This document shows positions 7,860 to 29,807 of a stretch of 64,000 nt of DNA, piece by piece. Made by a program: the position numbers and the translations under genes. The DNA comes from Myxococcota bacterium (lineage in GTDB: Bacteria > Myxococcota_A > UBA9160 > SZUA-336), in assembly GCA_965247115.1 (NCBI GenBank), contig CBDFGR010000003.1:1696001-1760000 (forward strand), given 5' to 3'. The notes beneath the pieces were generated by a model. The model searched no databases and was not told the origin of the DNA. It saw only the letters and a list, made by a program, of their open reading frames with translations. How positions within the stretch are numbered: the stretch's first letter is position 1; every line of letters starts with the position of its first letter.

Positions 7860-8705
7860 CTACGGGATCACCTTCTGCCGGTTCAGCTCCTGCCGCATCC
7901 GGTAGGCGTCATCGGTCAATAGTGTGATCGAGACCCTGCGGTTGCGACTGTCCTCCGGGTCCAGCGGATTGTAGGGCATGCGGTCGGAGTACCCGCGCAC
8001 CTCGAGGAAGCGGCTCTCGTGGATGCCTCCAGCCTCGAAGCCGCGCCGCGCCCGGTTGCTGCGTCCGGTGGAGAGCTCCCAGTTGCTCTGCGCGGAGCTC
8101 GCACCAAAGCCGCGGCCGTCCGTGTGTCCCTCGACCACGACGTAGTTCGGCAGCCGGCTGAGCTCCTTGCCGAGCTCCTGGAGCAGCGTCACCGCCTCGC
8201 TGTGGAGCTCGACACCACCGAGCTCGAACAGCGGCGTTTCCTTGTCCTCGACCAGACTGATCTTCAGCCCCTCGGGTGTCAGGGAGATCTCGATCTGGTC
8301 GCGGTATTTGCTCAAGCTCTCGATGCTGGCGAGCGACTCGCGAATTCGCTCCGCCTGCTCGCGCCAGTACTCCTCCATGCGCCGCGCCCGCTCGCTCTCG
8401 TCCAGGAGCATCTGGTTGCGCTGCTGGTCCTCGAAGATCGCGGTCTCGCCGGAGTTCGTTCCGCTCTCGATCGGCTTCGCCGTGCCTCCCTCGGTGAAGC
8501 CGATGGGATCCTTGAAGTAAGAGGCGACGTTCGCGACGACGTCGTCGCCCGCTCCCAGGATCCAGAGCACGATGAAGAAGGCCATCATGGCCGTCACGAG
8601 GTCGGCATAGGCCACCTTCCAGTTGCCGCCGTGATGTGCGCTGTGGCCCCCGGAGACCCGCTTGATGATGATCGGGGGGTGTCCCCCGTCGAGGTCTTCC
8701 GACAC
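7860..8705 (-). CDS. motB: Flagellar-type stator protein MotB
   Basis: WKVAYADLVTAMMAFF TM with the conserved Asp; OmpA-like domain GHTD...NWELS...RNRRV. Confidence 0.93.
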   Translation of the reverse strand: MSEDLDGGHPPIIIKRVSGGHSAHHGGNWKVAYADLVTAMMAFFIVLWILGAGDDVVANVASYFKDPIGFTEGGTAKPIESGTNSGETAIFEDQQRNQMLLDESERARRMEEYWREQAERIRESLASIESLSKYRDQIEISLTPEGLKISLVEDKETPLFELGGVELHSEAVTLLQELGKELSRLPNYVVVEGHTDGRGFGASSAQSNWELSTGRSNRARRGFEAGGIHESRFLEVRGYSDRMPYNPLDPEDSRNRRVSITLLTDDAYRMRQELNRQKVIP

Positions 8706-8711
8706 CGGGGG

Positions 8712-9572
8712 CTAGCCTTTCTTTACCTCGCGGAGTGCCTCCTCGAGCTCCTCGAAGGAGGGGCGATCCGCGCTGGGAATGCTGCGCCTCCCGATCTCCA
8801 CGGCCATGGGCGGGTTGACGCCAGAGATGGAGGCGAAGAGAACGTGCCGGATGCACGTGTAGTAGTGCTCGTTGGACCTGACGTTGCTCGCCATCGCGGA
8901 CGCGAACGGTCCGGCGAACCCGTAGGCGAGGAAGACCCCCAGGAACGTACCGACGAGGGCGCCGGCCACCTTCATGCCGACGATCGCTGCGCCCTGGTCG
9001 ATCGCTTGCATCGTCAGGATGATGCCGAGCACCGCGGCGACGATCCCCAGCGCGGGGAGGGCGTCGGCGAGTGTCTGAACTGCCTGTGAGGGCTCGAGTG
9101 CCTCGTGGTGCAGAACTTCGAGGTCCCGCTCCATCAGCTCATCCATCGGGTGTGGCTCCAGCACACCCGCGACGAAGAGCTTGAGCGTGTCGCAGAAGAA
9201 CGCCACCGCGTGCTCGTCCTTCGCGAAGGACGTGTACTTGGAGATGATCGTCGACTGCTGCGGGTCGTTTACGTGCCCCTCGAGTGCCAGTACGCCCTCT
9301 CTCCGTGCGAGCTGCATGAGCTCGTAGATCATCTGCAGCATCTCGACGTACTGCATGCGGGTCTTTCCACCGAGCCGTGTCAGCTTGACGAGGTCTTTCA
9401 GGATTCCGCGCAAGACGCGGGGCGGGTTCGCGATGATCAGCGTTCCGATGGACATGCCACCGATGATCAGGTACTCCGACGGCACGTAGAGCAGGATCAG
9501 CTTTCCGTGATGGAGCAGAAAGCCACTTATCATGCACCCGATGACGAGAACGATCCCGATGATGAGCTTCAA
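8712..9572 (-). CDS. motA: Flagellar-type stator protein MotA
   Basis: ARREGVLALE, PALGIVAAVLG, ALVGTFLG, VEIGR; TTG start at 9572 with GGAGG RBS (ATG 9620 is the alternative). Confidence 0.93.
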   Translation of the reverse strand: MKLIIGIVLVIGCMISGFLLHHGKLILLYVPSEYLIIGGMSIGTLIIANPPRVLRGILKDLVKLTRLGGKTRMQYVEMLQMIYELMQLARREGVLALEGHVNDPQQSTIISKYTSFAKDEHAVAFFCDTLKLFVAGVLEPHPMDELMERDLEVLHHEALEPSQAVQTLADALPALGIVAAVLGIILTMQAIDQGAAIVGMKVAGALVGTFLGVFLAYGFAGPFASAMASNVRSNEHYYTCIRHVLFASISGVNPPMAVEIGRRSIPSADRPSFEELEEALREVKKG

Positions 9573-9670
9573 GAGAAGCGCCTCCGGCGAGAGACTCGCA
9601 AGCTGCCTCGTAGAGGCCATCGGATAAACGCGCCTCTTTCTTGCACTACATGCGGGATCCGGGGCCGCGC

Positions 9671-16424: not shown

Positions 16425-17381
16425 GTGACGGGCTGGGGCTTGATCGTGGCCCTGCTGCTCGCGCTTGGCTGCGGCACGGGAGATCCCGCCGCACAGGCGA
16501 GCAGCGGAGAGAGAGGCTTCGACGGCGAGCGGGCCTTTCGCGATCTCGTGGATCAGGTTCGGATCGGGTCGCGCCCGGCCGGTTCACCGGGCGCTGCGCG
16601 TACGCGCGAGCTGATCCGGGAGCGCCTGCGCCAGGCGGGCTGGCGAACTCGAGATCACGACTTTGTTGCGCAACCACCGACGGGAGAGGCGGTTGCAATG
16701 ACGAACGTGATTGCCGAGAGAGAGGGCGAGCGGGAAGAGCTGATCCTGCTGGGCACGCACTACGACACCAAGCGCATCCCCGGCATCCGCTTTCTCGGTG
16801 CGAACGACGGCGCATCGGGTACGGCGGTCCTGCTCGAGCTGGCGAGAGAGCTGGCCGCACGCCCGTTGCCGTTTGACGTGTGGCTTGTGTTCTTCGATGG
16901 GGAAGAGTCGTTTGGAGAGAACATCACTGCCGGAGACGGACTGTACGGAAGTCGCGCCCTCGCCGAGGCGATGCAGGCCGACGGGAGTTTCGAACGGATC
17001 GCCACGTTGATCCTCGTGGACATGGTGGCGGATGCCGACCTGAACCTCGCTGTGGACCTGAACTCGTCACCCGCCCTGCGTCGGATGCTGGGCGCTGCAA
17101 GTGAGGCGCTTGGCCTGGACTCGATCATCGATACGGGGGTGAACATCCGGCTGATAGACGACCACACTCCGTTTCAGCGCCGCGGCCTGGCAGCGACTCT
17201 AGCCGTCATCGACTTCCAATACGGAGGCGTCGGATCGCCTGGCGCGTACTGGCACACGGCGCTTGACGACCTGGACAAGGTCTCCGCAGAGAGCCTGAAT
17301 AGCGTGGGTCGTCTGCTGGTCGAAACACTGCAGCGAGTAGAGCGCGGTCTCATCGAGGCCGAGCGTGCGCGAGATGGCTAG
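16425..17381 (+). CDS. M28-family metallopeptidase/glutaminyl cyclase-like lipoprotein
   Basis: Lipobox LALGC; THYDTK, GANDGASG, FFDGEE, DMV, DDHTPF, YWHT. Confidence 0.85.
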   Translation: MTGWGLIVALLLALGCGTGDPAAQASSGERGFDGERAFRDLVDQVRIGSRPAGSPGAARTRELIRERLRQAGWRTRDHDFVAQPPTGEAVAMTNVIAEREGEREELILLGTHYDTKRIPGIRFLGANDGASGTAVLLELARELAARPLPFDVWLVFFDGEESFGENITAGDGLYGSRALAEAMQADGSFERIATLILVDMVADADLNLAVDLNSSPALRRMLGAASEALGLDSIIDTGVNIRLIDDHTPFQRRGLAATLAVIDFQYGGVGSPGAYWHTALDDLDKVSAESLNSVGRLLVETLQRVERGLIEAERARDG

Positions 17382-17438
17382 GACGCTATACATCTCCCGC
17401 CCCACACGGGCTGCGCGGAGGCCATGAAGGGAGAGCTG

Positions 17439-18089
17439 ATGCGAATTCGATCCGGGTTAGTTGCGTGCTTGTTGGGTTTTTCGCTCGTCGCATGTCAATC
17501 CCTCGACTCGAACAAGAAGAAGGGGGTCTTGCTGGGCACTCTCGCGGGTGCCGCGGCCGGCGCTGCGATAGGCGGTTCCGACCATCGGGCGGGGGGCGCG
17601 CTGATCGGCGCCGCGACGGGAGCGCTCGCGGGTGGCCTTATCGGAAATTACCTGGACAAGCAGGCTGCGGAGCTCGACGCCATTCCGGGTGCAGAGGTCG
17701 AGAAGCGTGACGACTCGATCCTCGTAAACTTCCAGAGCCAGCTGCTCTTCGACTCGGGCTCTTCGAGCCTGCACCCCGGCGCGTACGACCGACTGCGTTC
17801 ACTCGCGACAACGCTGAACAACTACCCGAAGAGTCACGTGATCATTAAGGGTCACACGGACGGCGAGGGGAGCGAGGGCTTCAACCAGCAGCTGTCCGAG
17901 CAACGCGCCGACCGTGTGAGGAACTTCCTCATCTCGGAAGGAGTCGCACCCTCGCGAATCACCTCGCTCGGGTTCGGCGAGTCCCTACCCGTCGCCACGA
18001 ATGCAACCCGGGAGGGCCGGGCTCAGAATCGTCGTGTTGAGCTCGAGATTCGTCCGGACGACGAGGTCATGCGCGGCAACGCCGGGTAG
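17439..18089 (+). CDS. OmpA-family lipoprotein with glycine zipper (YiaD-like)
   Basis: Lipobox LVAC, Gly-zipper, GHTD...NQQLSEQRA...QNRRVE. Confidence 0.92.
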   Translation: MRIRSGLVACLLGFSLVACQSLDSNKKKGVLLGTLAGAAAGAAIGGSDHRAGGALIGAATGALAGGLIGNYLDKQAAELDAIPGAEVEKRDDSILVNFQSQLLFDSGSSSLHPGAYDRLRSLATTLNNYPKSHVIIKGHTDGEGSEGFNQQLSEQRADRVRNFLISEGVAPSRITSLGFGESLPVATNATREGRAQNRRVELEIRPDDEVMRGNAG

Positions 18090-18115
18090 CAGCTCGTAGG
18101 CTCGGCCCACCCTTT

Positions 18116-19414
18116 ATGCGCCCAGATCCGCGCACGTGGCGGGCGACACCTCGGGCGGCGGTCCTCGCCCTGCTGCTGGGGTGTGCTGCGCCGGCGGCCG
18201 GGTTCGCTGCCGAGGAGGATGGGGTTCGCATCGTGATGGACTCCCCCGCCCCGGACGAGGTCGTTCGGGGCCGGACGGATCTGGCGCCCTTGGCGGGAGT
18301 GGCCACCGCCGGCAATCGTCCGACTCACTTCGACCTCATGCTCGTCATCGATGTCTCCGGCTCCACGCGTTACCCGAGCGGCATCGACGTGGACGGGGAC
18401 GGCTCCCTGGGTCAGCAGAAGGCAGCCTTGGTCTCGATCCTGGACACGGTGAATACCGACCCCGAGGACTCCATCCTCGCTGCGGAGATCGCGGGCGCGC
18501 GGAAGCTCCTGGAGCAGCTGGATCCGGAGCGGGTTCGGGTCGGAGTGATCTCCTTTTCCGGGGAGATCGACCCGGGGAGCGGTCGCCGCCACTCCGTCGA
18601 CCAGGTCGACTCTCTGCTCGAGCACCCCCTCTCTTCGGACTACGAGCGCGTGGCGATTGCCCTCGACGCCGTACAGCTGCGGGGCCCTCACGGCGGGACG
18701 AACATGGAGGCCGGTGTGAAGCGCGCCCTGCGCGAGCTCACGGGGATCGGGGGTGGGGTCTCTGTGCCCCAACCGCACTCCAAGAAGGTGATCCTGCTGA
18801 TGACGGACGGAAAGCCCTCTCTTCCGTTCGGGCGAGCGGATGTGGAGGATCCTGCAGACGTGGAGGCGGTCGTGGCCGCGGCACAGCTGGCCGGCTCAGC
18901 CGGGATCACCATCAACGTCTACGGGCTCGGTCCTGGCGCGATCGACTATCCCCACGCCGCCACTGAGGTGGCGCGCGCGACGGCGGGGTTGTACACACCC
19001 GTCCGTCGCCCTGGCGACATCGTGTCGTTACTCTCTGGCGTCTCGTTCGCGAACGTCGAGGACGTCGTAGCCGTGAACCTCACGCTGAGCGAGTGGACGG
19101 GTCAAGACGATATTCTGCTCCGTCCCGATGGCTCGTTTCGCGGCTTTGTTCCCGTGCGGCCCGGCCTGAATCGGATCCGGGTGTCCGCGCTGGCCTCCGA
19201 TGGCAGGCGCGGATCGACAGAGCTTGACATCATGTTTACACACCAGGACCTCAGTGACGGGGAGCTCGAGGTGGAGCTCGAGCGAATCCGCAGCCGTAGC
19301 CGCGAGCTCCAGCTGCTGATGGAGCGCGACCGCCAGGAGGCCTTCCGCAAGCGCGAGCGGGAACGAACGCTCGACATCGAGGTCGACGGAGGAGAGGGGG
19401 AGAGCCAGCCTTGA
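18116..19414 (+). CDS. Exported VWA-domain protein
   Basis: MIDAS DVSGS...GGTN...MTDG; signal peptide; C-terminal charged coiled coil. Confidence 0.88.
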   Translation: MRPDPRTWRATPRAAVLALLLGCAAPAAGFAAEEDGVRIVMDSPAPDEVVRGRTDLAPLAGVATAGNRPTHFDLMLVIDVSGSTRYPSGIDVDGDGSLGQQKAALVSILDTVNTDPEDSILAAEIAGARKLLEQLDPERVRVGVISFSGEIDPGSGRRHSVDQVDSLLEHPLSSDYERVAIALDAVQLRGPHGGTNMEAGVKRALRELTGIGGGVSVPQPHSKKVILLMTDGKPSLPFGRADVEDPADVEAVVAAAQLAGSAGITINVYGLGPGAIDYPHAATEVARATAGLYTPVRRPGDIVSLLSGVSFANVEDVVAVNLTLSEWTGQDDILLRPDGSFRGFVPVRPGLNRIRVSALASDGRRGSTELDIMFTHQDLSDGELEVELERIRSRSRELQLLMERDRQEAFRKRERERTLDIEVDGGEGESQP

Positions 19415-20205
19415 ACAAGCTGCTAGTTGGATTGCTCAGCATCGCGATAGGCCTCGCCGTGGGGCTTGGTGCAAGTCGCGCCGCAGCACAGGCGGAGACG
19501 CCGCCAAGCGCCGAAGCCGCGACCGACGCGGATGCCGAGGAAGCTGAGGCGGAGGAGGGCGGCCGAACGCTGCGTGACTGGTACGAGCTCGGTGGCTGGA
19601 TCATGCACGTTCTCGTCGCGACCTCGATGCTGGTCTTCTATCTGGTGTTGGAGCGTACGTGGGCGCTTCGGTCGACGGCGGTCATGCCGCGCAAGTTTCT
19701 TGGCCAGATCAACGACCACTCGCGTCAGAGCGAGCTCGGCAAGGTGCTCGAGATCTGCTCGGAGACGGACAACGCGATCGCTCGCGTACTGCGCGCGGGC
19801 CTGATCCACTTCGACCAGGGCCTGGCTCCCATGGAGGATGCGGTCGAGACCGCCGGCACGCACGAGGCGACGGTCCTGCGCCGCAACCTGCCGCTCCTGG
19901 CCGCCATCGGAAACATGGCCACCATGATGGGACTGCTGGGAACGGTCCTCGGCATGATCAACTCCTTCGACCTGATTGCCACGACAGGCACCGGCGACGC
20001 TCGCGTGGTCGCGGGCGGTATCTTCCAGGCGCTCGTAACCACGGCCGCCGGACTCATGGTCGGCCTGATCGCGATCGGCTTCCACTCGTTCCTGCGACGC
20101 CGAGTCGAGGTGATGGAGATCGATCTCGAAGAGAAGTCTTTCCGGCTGCTGGAGGACCTGTGGGTCGGGCGTCAGGCTGGCCCCGAGCCGGTGACGGATG
20201 GCTAG
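19411..20205 (+). CDS. exbB: MotA/TolQ/ExbB proton channel protein
   Basis: ATMMGLLGTVLGMI and ALVTTAAGL; N-terminal signal-like extension. Confidence 0.88.
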   Translation: MNKLLVGLLSIAIGLAVGLGASRAAAQAETPPSAEAATDADAEEAEAEEGGRTLRDWYELGGWIMHVLVATSMLVFYLVLERTWALRSTAVMPRKFLGQINDHSRQSELGKVLEICSETDNAIARVLRAGLIHFDQGLAPMEDAVETAGTHEATVLRRNLPLLAAIGNMATMMGLLGTVLGMINSFDLIATTGTGDARVVAGGIFQALVTTAAGLMVGLIAIGFHSFLRRRVEVMEIDLEEKSFRLLEDLWVGRQAGPEPVTDG

Positions 20206-20208
20206 TCG

Positions 20209-20610
20209 GTGGCGCGCGCGCCGAAAGACGAAGAAGTAACTCTCAGCATGACGCCGCTCATCGACGTCGTGCTACTCCTGCTGATCTTCTACGTGGTGAC
20301 CACCGCCTTCGTCGATCGGGAGATCCAGCTCGAGCTCCCTGAATCGGATGCCTCGGCCATTCCGGAGGACAAGAAGAAGTTCACGGTCGAGATCGGTCAG
20401 AATGGCTCGATTGCCCTGAACGGCAAGTCCATGACGATCGAGCTGCTCGATCGCACCATCGAGGTTGCGGCGGCAGCCGATGACATCCAGTCCGTCGAAA
20501 TCCGCGCCGACCGCAACGTAATCCACGGCCGCGTAGTCCAGGTCCTCGGCGTCGTAAAGAAACACGGCGTGGAGAGCATCGGCATCGCGGTAAAACAAGC
20601 CCAATCGTGA
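20209..20610 (+). CDS. exbD: ExbD/TolR protein
   Basis: MTPLIDVVLLLLIFY with the conserved Asp; IRADRNV. Confidence 0.9.
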   Translation: MARAPKDEEVTLSMTPLIDVVLLLLIFYVVTTAFVDREIQLELPESDASAIPEDKKKFTVEIGQNGSIALNGKSMTIELLDRTIEVAAAADDIQSVEIRADRNVIHGRVVQVLGVVKKHGVESIGIAVKQAQS

Positions 20611-20657
20611 GCTAGAGCGGTCGACGCGCGGCAAATCCCCGCCTCGCACGCCGGAGA

Positions 20658-20759
20658 AGGTCGGGAACGTCCCCCGGAGGACTCCGCTCCTTGCGTGCAC
20701 AGGAGCCGTGCTCACCTCGGGCACCACTACCACAGTCCTCCGGGGGACGTTCCCGACCT
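20658..20759. repeat. Perfect 26-bp inverted repeat enclosing two small hairpins
   Basis: AGGTCGGGAACGTCCCCCGGAGGACT (20658-20683) pairs with 20734-20759. Confidence 0.9.
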
Positions 20760-20775
20760 CCTCCTCCTCGCCGAA

Positions 20776-20879
20776 TGGGCAACCCTGCAAAGCGCCGCGA
20801 ATGCGGCGCGCGCAGCGAAGGCCCCGGGCCTGAGCGGAGGTGGGTGGCGCGCGACCGCTCGCGCGCCGGGTCCCACAAG
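20776..20879 (-). repeat. REP-like element A
   Basis: Reverse complement of CTTGTGGGACCCGG...GCTCAGGCCCGGGGCCTTCGCTGCGCGCG. Confidence 0.9.
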
Positions 20880-20883
20880 GCTC

Positions 20884-22236
20884 TTAGAAGCCGGCGGCTA
20901 CCGGGTTTAGGATCTGCTTGCGGACTAGCTTGCCGTCGCTGTAGTGCGAGGTGACGTCCACGTCGCCGTCCGCGTTGAGGTCCTCTTCTTTCCGTACGAG
21001 GAGGACGTGCGCCGGGTCGGAGCCTTCGTAGAACTCCCAGACGTCCGTCTGGCCGTCCTCGTTGGTATCGAGCTCGGCGCGGATCGGGATCTCACGCTCG
21101 TCGTAGAAGGTCTTGAAGTCCATGCCTCCGTTGAAGTCGCGGTCCTCGAGCTCGAGCGCTCGGCGGCGCGCTGCGTACTCGACCCGGCGATCGATCACGC
21201 CGTCGTTGTTCGTGTCGTGCTCCTCGTAAGCGAGCGTCCCGTTCTCGTAGATGTAGAAGCCGTCCCGGACCCCATCGAAGTCTCGATCCACCTCGACTCG
21301 GCCCCCGACCTCCTGGCCGTATTCCGTCCAGCGATCAGCCACGCCGTCGTGGTTCGTGTCTTCCTCGAGGCCCGCGATCTCCCCGGTCTCGTCGTAGACC
21401 GTCGTGGAGTCGAGGGCTCCGTCGTAGTTCGTGTCTTCGGAACGGGTCAGGAGCTGTCCGGTCTGTCCGTCCATGGCGATCACGATCTCGGGCCGACCAT
21501 CCCGATCTGCGTCCAGAGTCTTGGCGATGCGCGACCCATTGCCCTCGCCGCGCACCTCGGTGTCGAAGATGCTGTCCGGGATCTTCCGCGCCGCAGCCGC
21601 CTGGGGAGCGCTCAACGGATCCGAGTCCCGCTCGGAGGCGGCCAGCGCCTCCTCTTCATCGCGCAGGACCTCGTTGAGCTCCTCCTGGCGGGAGATGGAT
21701 TCGAGGAGCTCCTCCTGACGCCGCAGCTCCTCCTCGATCTCCGACTCGAGCGCGCGCTGGCGTTCGAGCTCATCCTCGACCTCGGCCTCGAGCGCATCGT
21801 CCACGCCGCCTCCACGGCGTCCGCGCGGTCCGTTGCCCCGGCCACTCTCGAACGGCACCTCCCCCGTGACGAGTCCGTACAGGCCGAACACGGCTGCGCC
21901 GACCGCGGCGCCGGTGGCTCCTCCGAGCTGGCCGCCGATGACGGTGCCGACGATCATCCCCTCGACGCCGCTCTCCGCGTGCTTCTGGACCTTGGACGGT
22001 CCACGCTGCGCCTGCTTCGTGCTGGGGTCTTGGGGAATGTCCGCTCCAGGAGCGCCCGTTCCGGGAGCGCCCGCTCCGACGTCACCAGCGACCTCGCCAG
22101 CGTCACCAGCGATGTCCCCAGCAGGGTCTTGAGCACCAGGATCTGCGGGGTTGGGTCCGGAGGTTGCGCAGGCGAGGCCAAGCGCCAGCAGGGCGATGAG
22201 AGGTAGCCTGACGCTCTTTCGGATGGCGGTTCTCAT
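20884..22236 (-). CDS. Lipoprotein with Gly-zipper, acidic coiled coil and C-terminal DxD/NxDG repeats
   Basis: Lipobox LGLAC; GGATGAAVG zipper; about 8 repeats such as DTNYDGALD, DRDFDGVRD, DLNADGDVD. Confidence 0.85.
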   Translation of the reverse strand: MRTAIRKSVRLPLIALLALGLACATSGPNPADPGAQDPAGDIAGDAGEVAGDVGAGAPGTGAPGADIPQDPSTKQAQRGPSKVQKHAESGVEGMIVGTVIGGQLGGATGAAVGAAVFGLYGLVTGEVPFESGRGNGPRGRRGGGVDDALEAEVEDELERQRALESEIEEELRRQEELLESISRQEELNEVLRDEEEALAASERDSDPLSAPQAAAARKIPDSIFDTEVRGEGNGSRIAKTLDADRDGRPEIVIAMDGQTGQLLTRSEDTNYDGALDSTTVYDETGEIAGLEEDTNHDGVADRWTEYGQEVGGRVEVDRDFDGVRDGFYIYENGTLAYEEHDTNNDGVIDRRVEYAARRRALELEDRDFNGGMDFKTFYDEREIPIRAELDTNEDGQTDVWEFYEGSDPAHVLLVRKEEDLNADGDVDVTSHYSDGKLVRKQILNPVAAGF

Positions 22237-22259
22237 GCTCGCTCTCTCGTCATCCCTGC

Positions 22260-25200
22260 CTAGTCCACTAGGGTACCATGCGAGGCAAGCCGCGCCCGCC
22301 TGGCGCCGGTCCAGAACTCGCTGAAATCGCTGCAGAGGATCCGGTCGAAGGCATCCAGCACCGGAAGCGCAGCCGTACCATTCAGGGGCACGACCTCCTC
22401 CGTGGCCAGATCGAAGCGGACGTCGATCTGGCCGTCGAAATCGCTGTCCTCATCCTGTGTCTCTGGCGCCCCGTTCGCGTAGTTCACCCAGACGTCCGGG
22501 ACGCGGTCCGCATTCGTGTCCGCATCGAAGCGGGTCTGGATGCCCTCATCGAACACCTGGCGCTGGTCGCCGTAGCCGTCGCTTGTCGTGTCTTCGACGC
22601 TCGTGACCACCAGACCGGATTCGTAGCGAACAGCGGTGCGCTGAGTGCAGCTGAACTCCGGGATCCCGCCTTGCGCGAAGCGCGTTAGGCGATCCGGGCG
22701 CCCGTTGCAGTTCCGGTCTTCCTCCTGCACCGTGATGCGCTCCCCATCCTCCGCAAAGTGGAACACGATGTTCGGCTTGGCGCAGCGCCCGCGGGCCTCG
22801 GCCTGTAGAGTCCTGCTTCCGTCGCCGTCGTAGTACTCCCAGACGTCGACGATCTCGTTTTTGTTGGTGTCGACTTCCAGACGTGTCAGCTGGCCACCCT
22901 GGAAGAAGCTCCACGTGTCGAACTTGCAGTTTCCATCGGTGTCGCGAATATCCTCCTTGAGTCCGCCACTTGGGTCGAACAGCTGCCGCTGGTCCCGACA
23001 GCCGTCCGCGTTCGTGTCCTCCTCCAGCTCGCTGATGACTCCAGCGCTGAAGCGCGTTACTCGGCTCGGCTCCCCGTCCGCCTCCGGATCTTCGGTCTGC
23101 AGAGCTGGGCGACCTTCCTCGTCGTAGCGCACGACGAGGTCCGGGTAGCCGTCGCTGCTGGTGTCCTCCCGCTTGCGGCTCACGGCCCCACTGCTTGTCA
23201 GGTCCAACCACTGGTCGACCTCGCCGTTTCCGTCGGTGTCGAGCTCCTGGGAGACCTCGATGCCGTTCTGGAGGAAGACCGTGGCATCCAGGTTGCCGTC
23301 CAGGTCGGTGTCCTGCTCGATGCGGAAGGGATCCGTCTGGTCCTTTGCGAAGTAGGCGATCCGGTCGATGTGCGCGTTCGCGTCCGTGTCGCTCTCGATG
23401 CGCACGAGTGAGCCCTTCTCGTAGAACGACGTGGTCTCGAAGCTGTCGTTGCCGTCCAGATCCGACTGCTGCCGGACGAGCACTCCGTCGTCGAAGACGG
23501 AGACCGTGTCCACGCGGCCGTCGCGGTCGGTGTCCTCTCGCTGCGTGTCTCGGACACCCGCTGCAAGCTCCACCTCGGTGTCGAGCTTGCCGTCGAAATC
23601 GGTATCGGACTCCGTGCGGGCGACCTCGCCCTCCTCGTAGCGCGCGAAGTGGTCGTGAGTGCCGTCGAAGTTGCGGTCTTCGCGCTGCTCCGTCTGTACG
23701 CCCGCGGCGTACAGCTTGACCACGTCTGCCACGCTGTCGCCGTTGGTGTCGACTTCCTCCGAGGTCACCTCTCCACCCTCGCCGAAGACGAGCCACTGGT
23801 CCACGCGCCCGTCGCGGTCCACATCCTGCTCCTGGCGCGCGCTCACGCCGCCTTCGAAGAAGGTCACGACCTCGGCACGTCCGTCGGCGTCCTCGTCGCG
23901 CTCCTCCCGGACGCGTTGCTCGCCGGAGGCGTCGTAGAACACCTTCCCCTCAGCATGCCCGTCGCCGTCTGAGTCGAGCTCGACCACCTGCCGCTTTCCG
24001 TCCAGGTACGCGACGGACGCTTCGAAGACGCCGTCGAAATCCTCGTCTGTCCAGTCTCGGACGATCTGCCCCGCGTCGTCGTACTCTGCGCGGAAGTCGA
24101 TCTCCCCGTCGTGGTTGCGGTCCTCGGTAAGACCGACGATCTGGCTGCCGCTGAGCTTCGCAAAGCTGTCGGGCTGACCGTCCCCGTCCGAATCCGTCTC
24201 CTGGGCAACGCGCACTCCGTCTTCGAAGGTGGACCAGGAGTCGACACGGCCATCGCCGTCCAGATCCTCGAGCACGCGCTCGGGCTCACCGGTTTCCGGG
24301 TCGAGGGTGAGCCAGCGATCAGCACTACCGCTCCCCGAGGTATCGAGCTCCTGCTTCTCCAGCACGCCCGCGACGTAGAAGTTCCACAGGTCGACCCTGC
24401 CGTCGAAGTCATCGTCGATCTCCTGGCGGGCCAGCACGCCGTCCTCGAGAGACTCGAAGAAGTCGGGCGTACCGTCTGCGTTGCGATCGTCCTCCCGCCG
24501 CTCCGGTTTCCCCATGAAGAAGCGAATCCTCAGGTTGAGCTGACCGTCTCCGTTCGTGTCCTCGCGCTGCGCCAGCGTCAGCTCTTCGTCGAAGTCGTAC
24601 TCGACGTCGATCCGCCCGTCGAAATCCCGATCCTCTCGCTGCTGGGTCCGGAGGCCGTCCGTGAAGCTCACCCAGGTGTCGAAGTTCCCGTCCTCGTTCG
24701 TGTCGATCTGCCGGCTCGCGATCCCCCCGTCAACGAACTCCTCCACGGCTTCGGCTCGGCCGTCCTCGTCCATATCCACCGAGCGCTTCGCGATGACGTC
24801 GTTCTCGTAGAAGCGCAGCGTGTCGAAGCGGCCGTCGGCATCGGCGTCGACCTCTTCGCGAGCGCGCACCTCGTCGGGGCCGTAGTGCACGACGATCTCG
24901 ATCATCCCGTCACTGTCCGCGTCTCGTTGCTGGCGTGTGCGCTTGCCGGCCTCGAAGAACACCTGTGTCTCACGGGAGCCGTCGAGGTCGACGTCGATCT
25001 CCTCGCGCACGATGGCGTCTCCCTCGTAGTGGGCGATGCGCTCGTAGCTGCCATCGCCATCGCTGTCAGTCTCGGTCCGGACACGGACGCCACGCTCGTA
25101 GACGATCCGCAGGTCAAAGCGCCCATCCCCGGCCGTGTCCTGCTCTTCGAGCTGCTTCGAGCCGTCGGGCCCAAAGGAGGCGCGGCTCTCGGGGCGCCCG

Positions 25201-25694
25201 TTCTCGTTGTCGTCGACGATCAGACTGGCGACCCGGTCGTTCTCGTAGAAGGTCGTCTGGTTCGGTGTTCCGTTGCCGTCGGGATCTCTCTCGAGTCGAA
25301 CGCGGACGCCGCCTTCGAAGTACAGGACGGTGTCCCTGTTTCCGTCGTTGTCGGAGTCCTCGCGCTGGACCTGCAGCTCCTCGTCGTCGCCGAGCTCGAG
25401 CCACAGGTCGATGCGGCCGTCGCGATTCCGGTCCTCTTCCTGGCGGACCTTGTGCTCGCCCTCGAAGAACTGCCACAGGTCGACCTCACCATCGAAGTCC
25501 CGATCCTGCTCGATCCGGGCCGGTTTGCCCTCGAACAGGTGCTCCCACTGGTCGGTGCTTCCGTCGCCGTTCGTGTCCCGCTCGATCCGGATGGGCTGCT
25601 CGTTATCGTCGAAGAAGACGGATATCTGCGCGCCGCCAATCCGGGGGAACGTGAGCAGGCCGAGGATGGTGACGGCGGCGCCGAGCGGCTTCAT
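22260..25694 (-). CDS. Large exported protein (1144 aa) of about 40 tandem ~24-aa DxD/NxDG repeats
   Basis: Signal peptide ending GGA-Q; consensus roughly D-x-[DN]-x-D-G-x-x-D-x-W-x-x-[FY]-x-x-G-x-x-x-R-x-E-x. Confidence 0.88.
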   Translation of the reverse strand: MKPLGAAVTILGLLTFPRIGGAQISVFFDDNEQPIRIERDTNGDGSTDQWEHLFEGKPARIEQDRDFDGEVDLWQFFEGEHKVRQEEDRNRDGRIDLWLELGDDEELQVQREDSDNDGNRDTVLYFEGGVRVRLERDPDGNGTPNQTTFYENDRVASLIVDDNENGRPESRASFGPDGSKQLEEQDTAGDGRFDLRIVYERGVRVRTETDSDGDGSYERIAHYEGDAIVREEIDVDLDGSRETQVFFEAGKRTRQQRDADSDGMIEIVVHYGPDEVRAREEVDADADGRFDTLRFYENDVIAKRSVDMDEDGRAEAVEEFVDGGIASRQIDTNEDGNFDTWVSFTDGLRTQQREDRDFDGRIDVEYDFDEELTLAQREDTNGDGQLNLRIRFFMGKPERREDDRNADGTPDFFESLEDGVLARQEIDDDFDGRVDLWNFYVAGVLEKQELDTSGSGSADRWLTLDPETGEPERVLEDLDGDGRVDSWSTFEDGVRVAQETDSDGDGQPDSFAKLSGSQIVGLTEDRNHDGEIDFRAEYDDAGQIVRDWTDEDFDGVFEASVAYLDGKRQVVELDSDGDGHAEGKVFYDASGEQRVREERDEDADGRAEVVTFFEGGVSARQEQDVDRDGRVDQWLVFGEGGEVTSEEVDTNGDSVADVVKLYAAGVQTEQREDRNFDGTHDHFARYEEGEVARTESDTDFDGKLDTEVELAAGVRDTQREDTDRDGRVDTVSVFDDGVLVRQQSDLDGNDSFETTSFYEKGSLVRIESDTDANAHIDRIAYFAKDQTDPFRIEQDTDLDGNLDATVFLQNGIEVSQELDTDGNGEVDQWLDLTSSGAVSRKREDTSSDGYPDLVVRYDEEGRPALQTEDPEADGEPSRVTRFSAGVISELEEDTNADGCRDQRQLFDPSGGLKEDIRDTDGNCKFDTWSFFQGGQLTRLEVDTNKNEIVDVWEYYDGDGSRTLQAEARGRCAKPNIVFHFAEDGERITVQEEDRNCNGRPDRLTRFAQGGIPEFSCTQRTAVRYESGLVVTSVEDTTSDGYGDQRQVFDEGIQTRFDADTNADRVPDVWVNYANGAPETQDEDSDFDGQIDVRFDLATEEVVPLNGTAALPVLDAFDRILCSDFSEFWTGARRARLASHGTLVD

Positions 25695-25708
25695 GGGGCG
25701 GAGAGTTC

Positions 25709-26755
25709 CTAGTTCGCTTGGACCCTGGTTGTGTTGAAGCTGGCGAGGATCGCTTTGTTGACGATGTACTGGATCTCTGGTGGCGGCGGCGGGAACGGAC
25801 TGGCGTGCCGGAAGGCCTGGACACAGGTCTCGCCGAGGCTCTTGTCGCTGGCGCTGGCGACGGACAAGCTGTGCGCTGATCCCCCCCGGTCGATGCGGAA
25901 GCGCAGTCGCACTTGTCCTCCTCCAACGCTCTGAGGGATGAGCCAGCGGCTGTACACCCTCTCTTCGATCATCTCCAGATACGCGAGACAGGCCGGGTCG
26001 GTTTCACAGCTCTTTTCGACGCCTCCGAGAAACCCGCGGTCGCCCACGCCCTCGAAAGCACGCGTGGAGGTGCCGGACTCGAGGTCGGCTACCCTGGCGC
26101 CCTCGATGTCCCCCTCGATCGCGCTTTGCGAGATCACTCCCCGGTTTACGACCGGCGCGTTGATGTCGGCTGCACGTGCGTTCGTGACGGGTCCGGCCGC
26201 CACGAGCTTCCGCGGTCCTGCGCTGGCTCGCGCTGCAGTCACCTGAGCGACCTTTCCGCTGACGTCCGACACCTGGGCAGGCTGGACACGGGCAGGCGTC
26301 CGGGCGAATGCGCTCACGGCTCTGGTCGCGACGGTGCGCTGCTCCACAGATTTCGGCACCTCGGTGAGCTTGGTTCGCTCGACCTGCACGCGCCGCGTCT
26401 GGTCCAGGACAGAGACCGGCTTCACCTGGACCACCTCGGGCTGGTTGATCTCCTTGAAGCGGCGCACGCTCGCATCGACACGACGCTGGGCCAGCACCTT
26501 GCGTCTCTGCTTTGGCGGCTCGGGCTCGGGCTGCTTCTCGTTGAGCATGCGCACGACGACGACCTCCTCCTCCTCCACGATGGAGCCGAGCAAGGCGTCC
26601 CAGAAGAAGAAGAGAAGACCCAGGTGAAGGGCGATCGACAGGGCGGCAAGACCTCGGTTGCTGCCGTGCTTGCTCGGCGCTAGTGGGTCGTACCTCGGCA
26701 GCGACGCGAGCTGCGCCTCGATCTTCGGACTGCCGTACGTGATGACCTGCTCCAT
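25709..26755 (-). CDS. TonB/TolA-like energy transducer
   Basis: TM with SxxxH (LSIALH), PEPEPPK linker, C-terminal TonB_2-like domain (RWLIP...FRIDRGG...ASPFPPPP). Confidence 0.82.
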   Translation of the reverse strand: MEQVITYGSPKIEAQLASLPRYDPLAPSKHGSNRGLAALSIALHLGLLFFFWDALLGSIVEEEEVVVVRMLNEKQPEPEPPKQRRKVLAQRRVDASVRRFKEINQPEVVQVKPVSVLDQTRRVQVERTKLTEVPKSVEQRTVATRAVSAFARTPARVQPAQVSDVSGKVAQVTAARASAGPRKLVAAGPVTNARAADINAPVVNRGVISQSAIEGDIEGARVADLESGTSTRAFEGVGDRGFLGGVEKSCETDPACLAYLEMIEERVYSRWLIPQSVGGGQVRLRFRIDRGGSAHSLSVASASDKSLGETCVQAFRHASPFPPPPPEIQYIVNKAILASFNTTRVQAN

Positions 26756-26866: not shown

Positions 26867-26896
26867 AAAATAGGCTCCAGGGAGCCGCCCTGTCAA
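26867..26896 (-). promoter_or_regulatory. Putative sigma70 promoter for the tonB-repeat operon
   Basis: TTGACA-18 nt-TATTTT; the spacer contains the palindrome GGCTCC-N2-GGAGCC. Confidence 0.5.
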
Positions 26897-27265: not shown

Positions 27266-28576
27266 GTGGGGCTCACGCTGATTCAGCGAAGCGAGGGCCG
27301 CCGGCTGCCCGCCCATCCCAAGATCGCGCTGGTTCTCGCTGGCGGCGCGGTGAGCGGGGGGGCCTTCAAGGTGGGTGGCCTGAAGGCGCTGGACGAGTTC
27401 CTCGTCAGTCACAAGGTGACCGAGCTCGACATCTATGTCGGCCTCTCGGCCGGGGCGTTCCTGGCGACCTCGCTCTCGGGCGGCATCACACCGGACGAGA
27501 TGATCGAGGCCCTGGAGGGGACCTCGGAGCGGGTCGAGCAGCTGCGGCCAATCGACTTTTACAGCCCCAACATCGGCGAGGCGCTCGGCCGCTCGGCGGT
27601 CTTCTCAGCGCGGCTGGCCGCCTACATCCCCGGTCTCGTTCTGGACCTCGTCTCCGTCTTGCCGGAGCTTCCAGCACGGCTCGGGCCCAGCCTGCAGCGC
27701 GTGATGCGTCAGCCGACCTACACCCACCTCGAGATCTTCCTGATGGAGCTGTTTCAGGAGGTGTCTCCCAAGCGCGAGTTCCCCTCGCTGGCGGCCCTGC
27801 TGCCGGCGGGGATCTTCGACAACGCGCCGCTCGAACGCTGGCTGGCCTCGAACATGGCCCGGGTCGGTATGGCGAACTCCTTTGCCCAGCACTACCGCGA
27901 GACCGGACGCCGCCTGCACATCTCCGCCATGGACCTGGACACCGCGGAGCGCGTCATCTTCGGGCCCGAGAACGATCAGGGCCTGAGCATCTCCGAGGCG
28001 GTTCAGGCCTCGAGCGCGCTACCGGGCTTCTTCAAGCCGGTGCGTCGCGGCGGTGTCGACTATGTGGATGGGGGCGTGCCGCGGACGGCGAACATCGACG
28101 TGGCAGTGGCGCAAGGGGCGGACCTGATCATCTGCTACAACCCCTTCCGGCCCTACCTCAACCGCACGCAGCGGGACGGCTCTACCAGCCGACACTTCTT
28201 GTCGAATCGGGGCTTCACGACGGTCATCAACCAGGTGTTCCGGACCCTGCTTCACAGCCGGCTGGCGCTCAGCCTGCAGACCTACCAGCACGATGCCAGG
28301 TTCCGAGGCGACATCGTGGTGATCGAGGCGAGTGAGACGGACGAGCAGTTCTTCGGGCTGAACCCGCTGACCTTCTGGAAGCGCTTCGACGCGGTGCAGC
28401 ATGGCCTCCACGCCGTGCGCAAGACCCTCCTCGATTCCGGCGATATCCTGAAGCCGATCTTCGAGCGGTACGGGGTGGAGTTCCGCATCCCTCCCGAGCT
28501 CAGAGAGCCCGCCCCGGCCGCGGACGTGGCCTCCCCTCGTCCCTCACTCCGCGTCGTGGAGAGCGCAGCGGGATGA
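27266..28576 (+). CDS. Patatin-like phospholipase
   Basis: LAGGAVSGG, GLSAG and YVDGG motifs. Confidence 0.92.
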   Translation: MGLTLIQRSEGRRLPAHPKIALVLAGGAVSGGAFKVGGLKALDEFLVSHKVTELDIYVGLSAGAFLATSLSGGITPDEMIEALEGTSERVEQLRPIDFYSPNIGEALGRSAVFSARLAAYIPGLVLDLVSVLPELPARLGPSLQRVMRQPTYTHLEIFLMELFQEVSPKREFPSLAALLPAGIFDNAPLERWLASNMARVGMANSFAQHYRETGRRLHISAMDLDTAERVIFGPENDQGLSISEAVQASSALPGFFKPVRRGGVDYVDGGVPRTANIDVAVAQGADLIICYNPFRPYLNRTQRDGSTSRHFLSNRGFTTVINQVFRTLLHSRLALSLQTYQHDARFRGDIVVIEASETDEQFFGLNPLTFWKRFDAVQHGLHAVRKTLLDSGDILKPIFERYGVEFRIPPELREPAPAADVASPRPSLRVVESAAG

Positions 28577-28713
28577 GGGCGGTTCGCGAAACATACTGAA
28601 CTTGAAGGACTTTCGGGAATAGCTTCGCCCCGCCAGTGTTGAGAGGACCGAGGGCACGTGCTAAGGTGGCCCGCACGAGGGCGCCTTTCGAAGACCGGCC
28701 ACCCTGCGCGACC

Positions 28714-29469
28714 ATGTGTACTCTGATCCTCCTACACCGCGTTGTGCCCAGAAATCCGGTCGTCGTTGCGGCGAATCGAGATGAATACCTGTCGCGCGCC
28801 GCGGCGGGCCCAGTGCGCTTCCCTCCGAGGGAGCAGGGCATGCCGGCAGCGGTTGCGCCGCAGGATCTGGAAGCCGGGGGAACCTGGATGGGACTGAACA
28901 GCGACGGTCTGTTCGTTGGGCTGACCAATCGAGCGACCGCCACGGTCAGGACGGACAGGAGGTCGCGCGGGTTGCTCGTACGAGACGCGCTAGAACAGCG
29001 GACGGCCGCGGAGCTCGCCAGCGAGCTGGAGACGGGTCTCGAGGGGACCTATAACTCGTTCCACCTGGTCTACAGCGATGGCAAGGACGCCTTCCTCACT
29101 CAGCTTGAGGACCAGACTGCGGAGACCCGGCAGCTCGAGCCCGGTATCCACGTCGTCTGCAACAGAGGAGAGGATGATCCGGCGTCCAGCAAGGCCAGGG
29201 AAATCCGCCGCGCGCTGGAAGCGAGCCAGCTCGACCAATCCTTCGAGCGGGTGTTCGCGCGCCTGGCGAGCCTGCTTCGGGACCACGACATCGCCCCGAA
29301 TCCGCTCGAGAATCCATGCGTCCATACATCGGAGTTCGGTACCCGCTCCTCGGCGATCCTGAGCAGCGGTGGTCCGAAGCCGGGCTTCTGGTACGCGCCC
29401 GGCCCCCCCTGTGAGAGCAAGTTCGAGAACGTCAGCCACCTGCTGGACCCCGTTCAGTGGGCCAGATGA
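28714..29469 (+). CDS. NRDE/TANGO2-family protein
   Basis: N-terminal MCT, AANRDE, GGTWMG, SRGLLV, FGTRSS. Confidence 0.92.
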   Translation: MCTLILLHRVVPRNPVVVAANRDEYLSRAAAGPVRFPPREQGMPAAVAPQDLEAGGTWMGLNSDGLFVGLTNRATATVRTDRRSRGLLVRDALEQRTAAELASELETGLEGTYNSFHLVYSDGKDAFLTQLEDQTAETRQLEPGIHVVCNRGEDDPASSKAREIRRALEASQLDQSFERVFARLASLLRDHDIAPNPLENPCVHTSEFGTRSSAILSSGGPKPGFWYAPGPPCESKFENVSHLLDPVQWAR

Positions 29470-29807
29470 ATCGAGGGACACGAAAGTTGAAGCGAATCGG
29501 TAGCAATCTCAGACCTGCTGAGCAGAACCCACACCGGAACTTCCGGAACATCATTCGCTACACGGAAGCCGAGGCTCCCAGCAACGAATATCCGAAACGG
29601 ATCGTCTCTCCGCCGCTGCCGAAAACGTGCTGCACCGAGGAGAACCGCGTGCTGATCGGCAACGTGCGTGAAGTCGACGGCTTCAAGTTCTGTTACAAGA
29701 TCTGCAGTGAGTGTGGGCACGCGGTGCGCTTCTTCTACCCGGCCGTGAAGACGAACGACAGGGCGGTGCGCGAGTACCGGGCCTGGAAGAAGTACATGGT
29801 TCAGTGA
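29466..29807 (+). CDS. Small basic Cys-containing hypothetical protein
   Basis: ATGA coupling to NRDE; CC...C-x3-CSECGH. Confidence 0.65.
   Translation: MNRGTRKLKRIGSNLRPAEQNPHRNFRNIIRYTEAEAPSNEYPKRIVSPPLPKTCCTEENRVLIGNVREVDGFKFCYKICSECGHAVRFFYPAVKTNDRAVREYRAWKKYMVQ

Follow-up and report, generated by a model that had tools for sequence, protein, structure and literature searches.

The locus

In the genome of a Myxococcota bacterium (GenBank assembly GCA_965247115.1), a stretch of 64,000 nucleotides on contig CBDFGR010000003.1 (positions 1,696,001 to 1,760,000 of the forward strand; hereafter, 'the window') contains eight genes arranged in two convergent runs. They encode an ExbB-ExbD proton motor, a TonB/TolA-like force transducer, a long exported repeat protein (hereafter, the 'rod'), a repeat lipoprotein, a VWA protein, and two further lipoproteins. 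Here, we outline the evidence that transducer and rod very probably form a dedicated system driven by this motor. All eight open reading frames listed in a preliminary description of this DNA were found at window positions 16425-26755, and family scans returned Peptidase_M28, YiaD-type OmpA (over the cut-off), VWA, MotA_ExbB, ExbD, and, marginally, TonB_C/TonB_2. In window coordinates, the features are:

16425-17381, plus strand: M28 lipoprotein (open reading frame and family scan)
17424-18089, plus strand: OmpA-domain lipoprotein, YiaD-family glycine-zipper, peptidoglycan-binding; accessory
18116-19414, plus strand: exported VWA protein; second module
19411-20205, plus strand: ExbB/TolQ-family motor subunit with a signal-peptide-like N-terminus; core
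20209-20610, plus strand: ExbD/TolR-family motor subunit with the conserved Asp; core
20884-22236, minus strand: repeat lipoprotein-like protein with eight repeat units; second module
22260-25694, minus strand: exported repeat protein (the rod), 1,144 amino acids; core
25709-26755, minus strand: TonB/TolA-like force transducer, 348 amino acids; core
26867-26896, minus strand: match to a sigma-70-like promoter, upstream of the transducer gene

The plus-strand genes follow one another with gaps of 42, 26, -4, and 3 bp; on the minus strand, 14 bp separate transducer and rod and 23 bp separate rod and lipoprotein, and the ends of the two runs lie 273 bp apart. The promoter match is not above chance (one found against 0.6 expected).

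Two layouts of a conserved core

Gene content was surveyed in 41 genomes, and a transducer profile was run against 221 genomes of the class to which this genome belongs and 163 genomes of other classes. The conserved core consists of four genes (ExbB, ExbD, transducer, and rod), and the VWA gene and the repeat lipoprotein gene form a second module; in the eight-gene block of the window, two loci have merged, a lineage-specific event. The order seen in the window (layout A) is marked by an ExbB found in 17 genomes, all of this genome's own family and always behind the VWA gene, and the full eight-gene order stands on a single contig in 11 genomes. In layout B, one locus carries ExbD-ExbB divergent from transducer-rod (complete in 17 of 20 cases, the other three being cut by contig ends), and at a second locus, next to comM, the VWA gene faces the lipoprotein gene.

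Wherever the contig extends far enough, the rod gene lies next to the transducer gene and in the same orientation. In a further 40 loci, picked by transducer match, the transducer has ExbB on one side and the rod on the other every time; ExbD was called in 39 (one ExbD and one transducer escaped the gene caller). Once two paralogue loci are set aside, the VWA gene lies opposite the lipoprotein gene in 32 of 35 loci, two of the misses being contig ends and one (G033) real. The preliminary description had treated the eight genes as one fixed unit; this does not hold, since most of the class keeps two separate loci (ExbD-ExbB/TonB-repeat and VWA/lipoprotein), and what its proposed comparison of gene neighbourhoods bears out is the linkage within the core and within the VWA-lipoprotein pair. 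Since layouts A and B carry different ExbB-ExbD genes, motor genes stand beside the same partners in two layouts.

M28 and the OmpA lipoprotein were rejected as core components: present in 27 and 26 of the 35 VWA loci, they are absent from eight and nine, some of these at contig ends. A GldAFG-like ABC trio was likewise rejected, this genome having only a 31% paralogue. The trio converges on exbD in many majority-layout loci (L067-L086, L126-L165), and the genomes tested from genus g29 (see below), like this genome, seem to hold only the paralogue near tol-pal.

Distribution and loss

Of the 41 genomes, 37 gave a rod match and 38 a transducer match. In the whole class, 177 of the 221 genomes, representing 85 of 89 genera, matched the transducer profile, 170 of the 177 once only; none of the 163 genomes of other classes did (E <= 1e-15; the top ten candidates per genome were scored). 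The claim that this is a distinct, conserved proton-motor system, apart from the genome's own Tol-Pal and TonB operons, is thereby borne out: its parts co-occur throughout the class and were lost together in one genus.

That genus, g29, has the transducer in one of 29 genomes. No full-length VWA orthologue was found in 31 g29 genomes (seven gave partial matches, the best at E 8e-34), and a repeat match was absent from four of the five g29 genomes tested. The exception, G378, keeps ExbB, ExbD, the transducer, and a shortened rod without the first four units and some internal ones; it lacks the VWA protein and the repeat lipoprotein.

A repeat protein that we take, from Atlas labels, to be Desulfobacterota-like (P0004) matched only genomes of the class when 351 genomes were searched (E <= 1e-25). 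A search of proteins clustered at 50% returned 123 proteins at E <= 1e-30, none of them named, and the Atlas returned unnamed repeat clusters only.

The repeat rod

The rod contains 31 strict D-x-[DN]-x-[DN]-G matches with a period of 24 residues, and the lipoprotein contains eight; such repeats are evidently not due to chance. About 44 units of 24 residues can be read in the rod, each composed of a strand, a D-x-[DN]-x-D-G-x-x-[DE] loop, a second strand, and a turn, and from this motif the loops of both proteins putatively bind calcium. The mature rod is very acidic (292 Asp/Glu against 120 Lys/Arg). In a set of 66 orthologues, from which the shorter rods of G025 (967 amino acids), G032 (983), and G378 were left out, length is 1,011-1,161 amino acids, the alignment is almost gapless, and each unit is conserved at its own place in the chain, most strongly at residues 420-525; 57 of the 66 end in a C-x2-F-x2-[FLY]-W helix. 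Right after the likely signal-peptidase site stands a Gln in ExbB, in the rod, and in the TolB of this genome, as in 33 of the 66 rods (a crude pattern, with no background count).

A model built from a 32-sequence alignment predicts a single-layer beta-sheet, a beta-meander of 89 strands with one short terminal helix (predicted local distance difference test 87.8; predicted template modelling score, pTM, 0.37). In VIA-align, its top-ranked neighbours are single-layer sheets: CPAP TCP (Z 9.7; root-mean-square deviation 4.4, 170 residues aligned), GtfA/TarM sheets (Z 9), OspA (Z 8.8), and MORN proteins (Z 6-7; MORN4 Z 6.6). No Pfam family matched the rod or the lipoprotein, and NF050087 matched both below its cut-off only (122 bits, a local match, and 29 bits, against a whole-protein cut-off of 150). 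About six units of the same repeat precede the plug domain of a TonB-dependent receptor (P0005), a fusion which suggests that the repeat folds on the periplasmic side.

Because the top Foldseek matches of the rod are Rhs and teneurin shells (E 1e-22), and because one face of the predicted sheet is moderately hydrophobic, what the motor moves might instead be a rod folded into a closed, Rhs-like shell or into a groove that carries lipid. We regard this as highly improbable. The template modelling (TM) score to the shells is about 0.1 with a root-mean-square deviation near 60 A for a model of pTM 0.37, no RHS/YD Pfam family matched, and no toxin-like tail follows the repeats. The hydrophobicity pattern of the unit, with one strongly hydrophobic position (89%) and a first strand mostly of Arg, Glu, and Gln, does not favour a lipid groove.

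The repeat lipoprotein and strand register

The lipoprotein consists of a glycine zipper, an acidic coiled-coil-like segment, eight repeat units, and an unpaired last strand. In 29 of 30 orthologues its end reads loop-strand-turn-strand, so that the last unit breaks off behind its first strand; the rod, in 42 of 66 (by a fixed pattern), opens with the complementary second strand and turn. Judged by this register, lipoprotein and rod could join into one sheet. A third repeat lipoprotein, with a lipobox and the same unpaired strand end, is encoded at G000:C3:110.2-111.4 kb (L095), and many genomes of the class have similar matches.

Motor and transducer

The motor residues are intact, as first described: the transmembrane Asp of ExbD (TPLID), the channel Thr residues of ExbB (GTV, TTA), and the S-x3-H helix of the transducer, in which the His is invariant in 66 of 66 orthologues and a Ser stands four residues before it in 41. 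The transducer has one membrane helix, a conserved Val-rich linker (4.9% Pro), and a C-terminal TonB_C/TonB_2 domain. Both family matches are marginal (PF03544, 25.5 bits against a cut-off of 24.6; PF13103, 23.2 against 22), and the domain is common to TolA; its best matches among solved structures are TonB (E 0.003). Cys250 is invariant, with a second Cys either six residues on (layout A) or near the C-terminus (layout B), which suggests that the disulfide partner was swapped between layouts.

Both layouts have one ExbD. The layout-A ExbB scores 76 bits with the tolQ model (cut-off 221) and shares 24-37% identity with its counterpart, the ExbB found with this transducer elsewhere in the class. 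Quick trees separate the two ExbB types. In one of these (75 rows, with motors from five genomes that carry GltG-like genes, after three long-branch rows were dropped), a branch with a Shimodaira-Hasegawa-like approximate likelihood ratio test (SH-aLRT) support of 97 lies between them, and layout-B ExbB falls in a TolQ-containing superclade (SH-aLRT 97) with layout-A ExbB apart. A motor replacement between the layouts is probable, although a single clade of both withstood an approximately unbiased (AU) test that used 46 of 63 rows (p 0.18). Both types stand outside the TolQ clade (SH-aLRT 99-100) and outside a clade (SH-aLRT 99) of divergent two-ExbD motors from gliding-cluster genomes, to which, from gene order, we presumptively give the name AglR. 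The ExbB phylogeny thus sets this motor apart from TolQ and from the two-ExbD gliding-genome motors. An ExbB with two ExbD and a 460-residue neighbour in G019, G031, G037, and G039 (L176, L178-L180) groups with the two-ExbD gliding-genome motors.

The VWA protein and its tail

The MIDAS (metal-ion-dependent adhesion site) residues, D79, S81, S83, T195, and D231, do not vary in any of the 31 VWA sequences, and the MIDAS serines are followed by an inserted DxDxDG loop. In the model, the VWA domain has beta-strands on either side, which suggests that it is inserted in a beta-rich Ig-like domain, and a helix spans residues 381-423 (43 residues). The sequence ends in a conserved terminal strand motif. 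The nearest folds are a Catenulispora VWA protein, PitA, SpaC, ITIH1, and integrin beta heads (TM 0.35-0.43). N-termini of the 31 sequences are unconserved and signal-peptide-like, with no conserved helix bearing His or Asp. An orthologue 90% identical stands at locus L098.

This genome has ten loci of the exported VWA family. The terminal strand pattern occurs in eight of them, against 27 of 3,689 proteins; it was defined after the VWA ends had been viewed, so that the paralogue count is not independent evidence. Independent evidence comes from a TPR lipoprotein (G000:C3:1890312-1891205, L190), the first non-self match of 4,322 proteins to a VWA-tail profile that allows a small indel (20.6 bits; next, 6.7); a plain hidden Markov model of the tail did not list it. 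Orthologues of this lipoprotein occur in 25 of the 41 genomes, with a tail scoring above the 99th background percentile in 23 of 28 and above zero in 15.

Several copies of the TPR lipoprotein are found in G005 and G015. This genome also encodes three near-identical lipoprotein-TPR-VWA fusions of 862 amino acids (G000:C2:1297406, C3:673228, C3:2353927), with a DxSxS MIDAS and the tail kept, two of them beside integrase-like genes, and a VWA paralogue split in two frames (G000:C3:85909-87090, L094) near an orphan exbD.

A helix-strand tail shared by otherwise unrelated exported proteins could be a client signal, read by the transducer arm or the rod in an energized sorting or export pathway by which VWA proteins and TPR lipoproteins reach the outer membrane or the cell surface. 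The tail counts just given speak for such a pathway, as does the failure to find VWA orthologues or the TPR family in the g29 genomes tested. However, no translocon is linked, and the tail could be a plain coiled-coil oligomerization element. None of the six genomes of family f5 has the TPR family, yet the core is kept in four of them, and G378 keeps the core without a known client. We therefore consider sorting or export very unlikely.

The accessory genes and neighbouring features

The OmpA-domain lipoprotein scores 222.6 bits with NF053611 (cut-off 175) and has the lipobox, glycine zipper, and OmpA domain of YiaD. The M28 protein has the M28 fold with zinc-site motifs. Of its 45 Protein Data Bank matches, most bear the name glutaminyl cyclase, although the top one (7d18, E 4e-47) is called only Peptidase M28. 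It thus appears to resemble the animal-type (type II) enzyme and is a probable passenger.

In most genomes of the class, the locus is followed by a patatin-like gene, TANGO2, and an unknown gene of 106-116 residues (window 27266-29807). A motA-motB-like pair, one of three in the genome, lies at window 7860-9620, away from the flagellar-like genes. Four RNA-library runs from one study contain contigs at most 99% alike over parts of most of the eight genes; contigs cannot show transcription. Contigs in three runs carry a 21-base in-frame deletion at window 22093-22113, in the flexible N-terminal linker of the lipoprotein.

Proposed mechanism

The rod is the only invariant non-motor neighbour of the transducer, and it is therefore the likely transducer target. 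Protons passing through ExbB-ExbD would move the transducer, as in Ton and Tol, and the transducer C-terminal domain would attach to one of the rod's strands through beta-strand addition. The first strand is probably not the one bound, because the shortened rod of G378 has lost that end and the transducer has been kept. The repeat lipoprotein would be the outer-membrane anchor, with the rod in the periplasm and its first strand paired with the unpaired last strand of the lipoprotein in one continuous sheet. Exported proteins that end in a basic helix and a strand (the VWA family and the TPR lipoprotein) may dock on this acidic scaffold. The output would be tension on, or repositioning of, a point of attachment at the outer membrane, serving to attach the cell to surfaces or to tether the envelope. 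Gene content, motor residues, linkage, joint loss, and the common tail are observations, whereas the rod fold and the VWA architecture are predictions, and the binding of transducer to rod, of rod to lipoprotein, and of tail to scaffold is inferred. The full scaffold model, in which the arm, as a third envelope force transducer, grips a calcium-stiffened rod and pulls on an outer-membrane-anchored scaffold that carries VWA proteins by their shared tail, is tentative, a little short of an even bet.

Several observations weigh against it. The link between the VWA/lipoprotein pair and the core is looser than the links within the core: G033 and G012 each lack one member of the pair at the locus, and G378 shows the core persisting without either. 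The argument drawn above from the shortened rod of G378 concerns one genome, which may be decaying. The joint loss in g29 is one event among relatives and not a statistic. Lipoprotein orthologues in G026, G028, G031, and G040 are without the lipid-anchor Cys and the glycine zipper. The overall shape of the predicted rod is uncertain at its pTM, Z values near 8-10 for repeat sheets say nothing of function, and calcium binding is deduced from the loop motif alone. Laid flat, 89 strands would measure about 43 nm, more than the usual periplasm, and the rod is perhaps coiled or surface-exposed.

Weighing most heavily against the model, the arm may serve receptors elsewhere in the genome, the case that the preliminary description had named as refuting. 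G007, G009, G013, and G032 (92-97% complete) hold three to five receptor barrels, and their TonB_C matches are only TolA-like and/or this transducer. From such genomes, a housekeeping Ton system could be argued, in which the arm energizes scattered receptors (BtuB-like and others), the rod is a periplasmic adaptor or spacer, and the VWA protein and lipoprotein are mere neighbours. Receptor barrels occur in 41 of 41 genomes, 11 genomes have no strong canonical TonB_C match (four of these being at least 92% complete), and such genomes have conserved BtuB-like receptors beside ABC permeases; the structural match of the transducer domain to TonB and the fusion of the repeat to a receptor in P0005 point the same way, as does g29, which has lost the system and has strong canonical TonB matches (G037, G039). 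Nevertheless, the transducer is single-copy where present (170 of 177), while receptors range from 1 to 31, and genomes with canonical TonB operons keep it. No receptor was recognized among the recurring neighbours of the mapped loci, and the co-loss with VWA is not explained; TolA cross-talk, incomplete assemblies, or missed TonB genes could cover the gap in the 11 genomes. This alternative is accordingly rather unlikely.

Significance

To our knowledge, the outputs of ExbBD/TolQR motors with TonB/TolA transducers are few: receptor unplugging, Pal deposition, and gliding. The system described here is near-universal and single-copy throughout a class, and its partner is unlike receptor, Pal, or gliding targets. 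Natural experiments are at hand in the two layouts, the probable exchange of motors, the genus that has lost the system, and the shortened version, and short defined segments allow binding tests with purified proteins although the organisms are uncultured. Within the phylum, the system and the gliding machinery are distributed as mirror images, which bears on how motors are rewired to new jobs.

Comparison with known systems

This genome is 98% complete and has a full tolQRAB-pal-cpoB cluster, a DUF3450-ExbB-ExbB-ExbD-TonB-TPR operon, and further MotA/ExbB genes. The preliminary description had noted no TonB-dependent receptor and no tolB; this is correct for 16425-26755, but elsewhere the genome has 18 receptor barrels together with the Tol-Pal and TonB operons just named.

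The system resembles Tol-Pal in its motor family, S-x3-H helix, TolA/TonB C-terminal fold, soluble periplasmic partner with outer-membrane lipoproteins, and class-wide single-copy retention. It differs in having no TolB beta-propeller (no PD40/TolB_N match in the cluster), the partner being a repeat sheet with 89 predicted strands. The lipoprotein with the OmpA domain is of the YiaD type and not always present, the Pal model reaches 74 bits in the cluster (cut-off 125), and the true tol-pal operon is separate.

Motor and transducer families, the channel Thr and Asp, the S-x3-H helix, and TonB_C are shared with Ton. Unlike in Ton, the linker is Val-rich and not Pro-rich, a non-receptor partner is invariant, and the canonical TonB operon is separate. 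No linked receptor was recognized by the family scan, which covered recurring neighbours of the mapped loci, singletons and the 40 further loci being left out.

The preliminary description had also drawn a likeness to the Agl-Glt gliding apparatus of the same phylum. This likeness is one of parts list only (proton motor, TonB-like domain, VWA with MIDAS, and DxDxDG repeats), and membership in Agl-Glt is refuted, whereas an analogy of function may still hold. Models of CglB, CglD, GltC, GltG, and the AgmX tail gave nothing over cut-off in this genome (those of CglB, CglD, GltC, and the AgmX/PglI tail had no positive-control genome), and for GltG there were FHA-region matches only. Here, the transducer lacks FHA, there is one ExbD rather than two, and TPR scaffolds and barrels were not recognized. 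The DxDxDG region of CglD is, according to one preprint, a COMP/thrombospondin-type domain that lacks structure for the most part and is fused to VWA (bioRxiv 2023.10.19.562135), whereas DxDxDG here lies in predicted regular beta-hairpins of separate proteins.

Agl-Glt sits in classes where this transducer system was not found. Outside the class, 154 of 163 genomes carry GltG-like genes, against 0 of 38 within it (E <= 1e-40), the reverse of the transducer distribution; all of these genes score under the curated cut-off. Of six checked, five have FHA and two have TonB_C, and five sit in clusters of large exported proteins in an order that we read as gltD-E-F-G-like. No ExbB/ExbD was found in 20 loci around GltG-like genes. 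A second preprint reports A-motility homologues in other classes, with Vahlivitia (UBA9160), presumably the class studied here, often lacking the social and predatory toolkit (bioRxiv 2026.07.10.737566).

This complementary distribution, together with the expanded exported VWA family, whose folds lie near pilus-tip adhesins and integrin beta heads, could indicate a motility or retractable-adhesion machine that replaces Agl-Glt, its motor dragging VWA adhesins along a rod track. We think this quite unlikely: the distribution is a single class-level contrast, an outer-membrane barrel and a cytoplasmic FHA/TPR platform were not recognized among recurring neighbours, and the genome has flagellar basal-body-like genes, motAB-like pairs, and 13 prepilin-motif proteins, which point to other motility. 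A broader proposal is a class-specific third branch of TonB/TolA transduction, an independent counterpart of Agl-Glt in which rod and lipoprotein, head to tail, form a calcium-bound track of about 40 nm that handles VWA and TPR proteins via their tails; taken whole, it is rather doubtful.

A vWA gene of no known function beside tolQ/tolR-like motor genes has been described by Williams-Jones et al. (2025), with the vWA protein as a membrane-tethered transducer by virtue of a membrane helix that bears SHLS or Asp; the same source, which also describes PorE, holds that TolA/TonB function is to be read from gene context and that strand addition is how the C-terminal domain engages its target (PMC12204202). 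Unlike those transducers, the VWA protein here has no conserved His/Asp helix and stands beside a separate TonB-like transducer. CPAP TCP, OspA, MORN proteins, and the Lsa25.6 family NF050087 are alike in predicted single-layer fold or local repeat match, but the rod is far longer, carries a calcium-type loop on every hairpin, and is tied to a motor.

We found no paper describing the system in a literature search outside which lay subscription papers, preprint supplements, and the locus tables of PMC12204202. The transducer-rod system is apparently undescribed, and we regard it as a distinct variant of TonB/TolA force transduction with a new class of partner.

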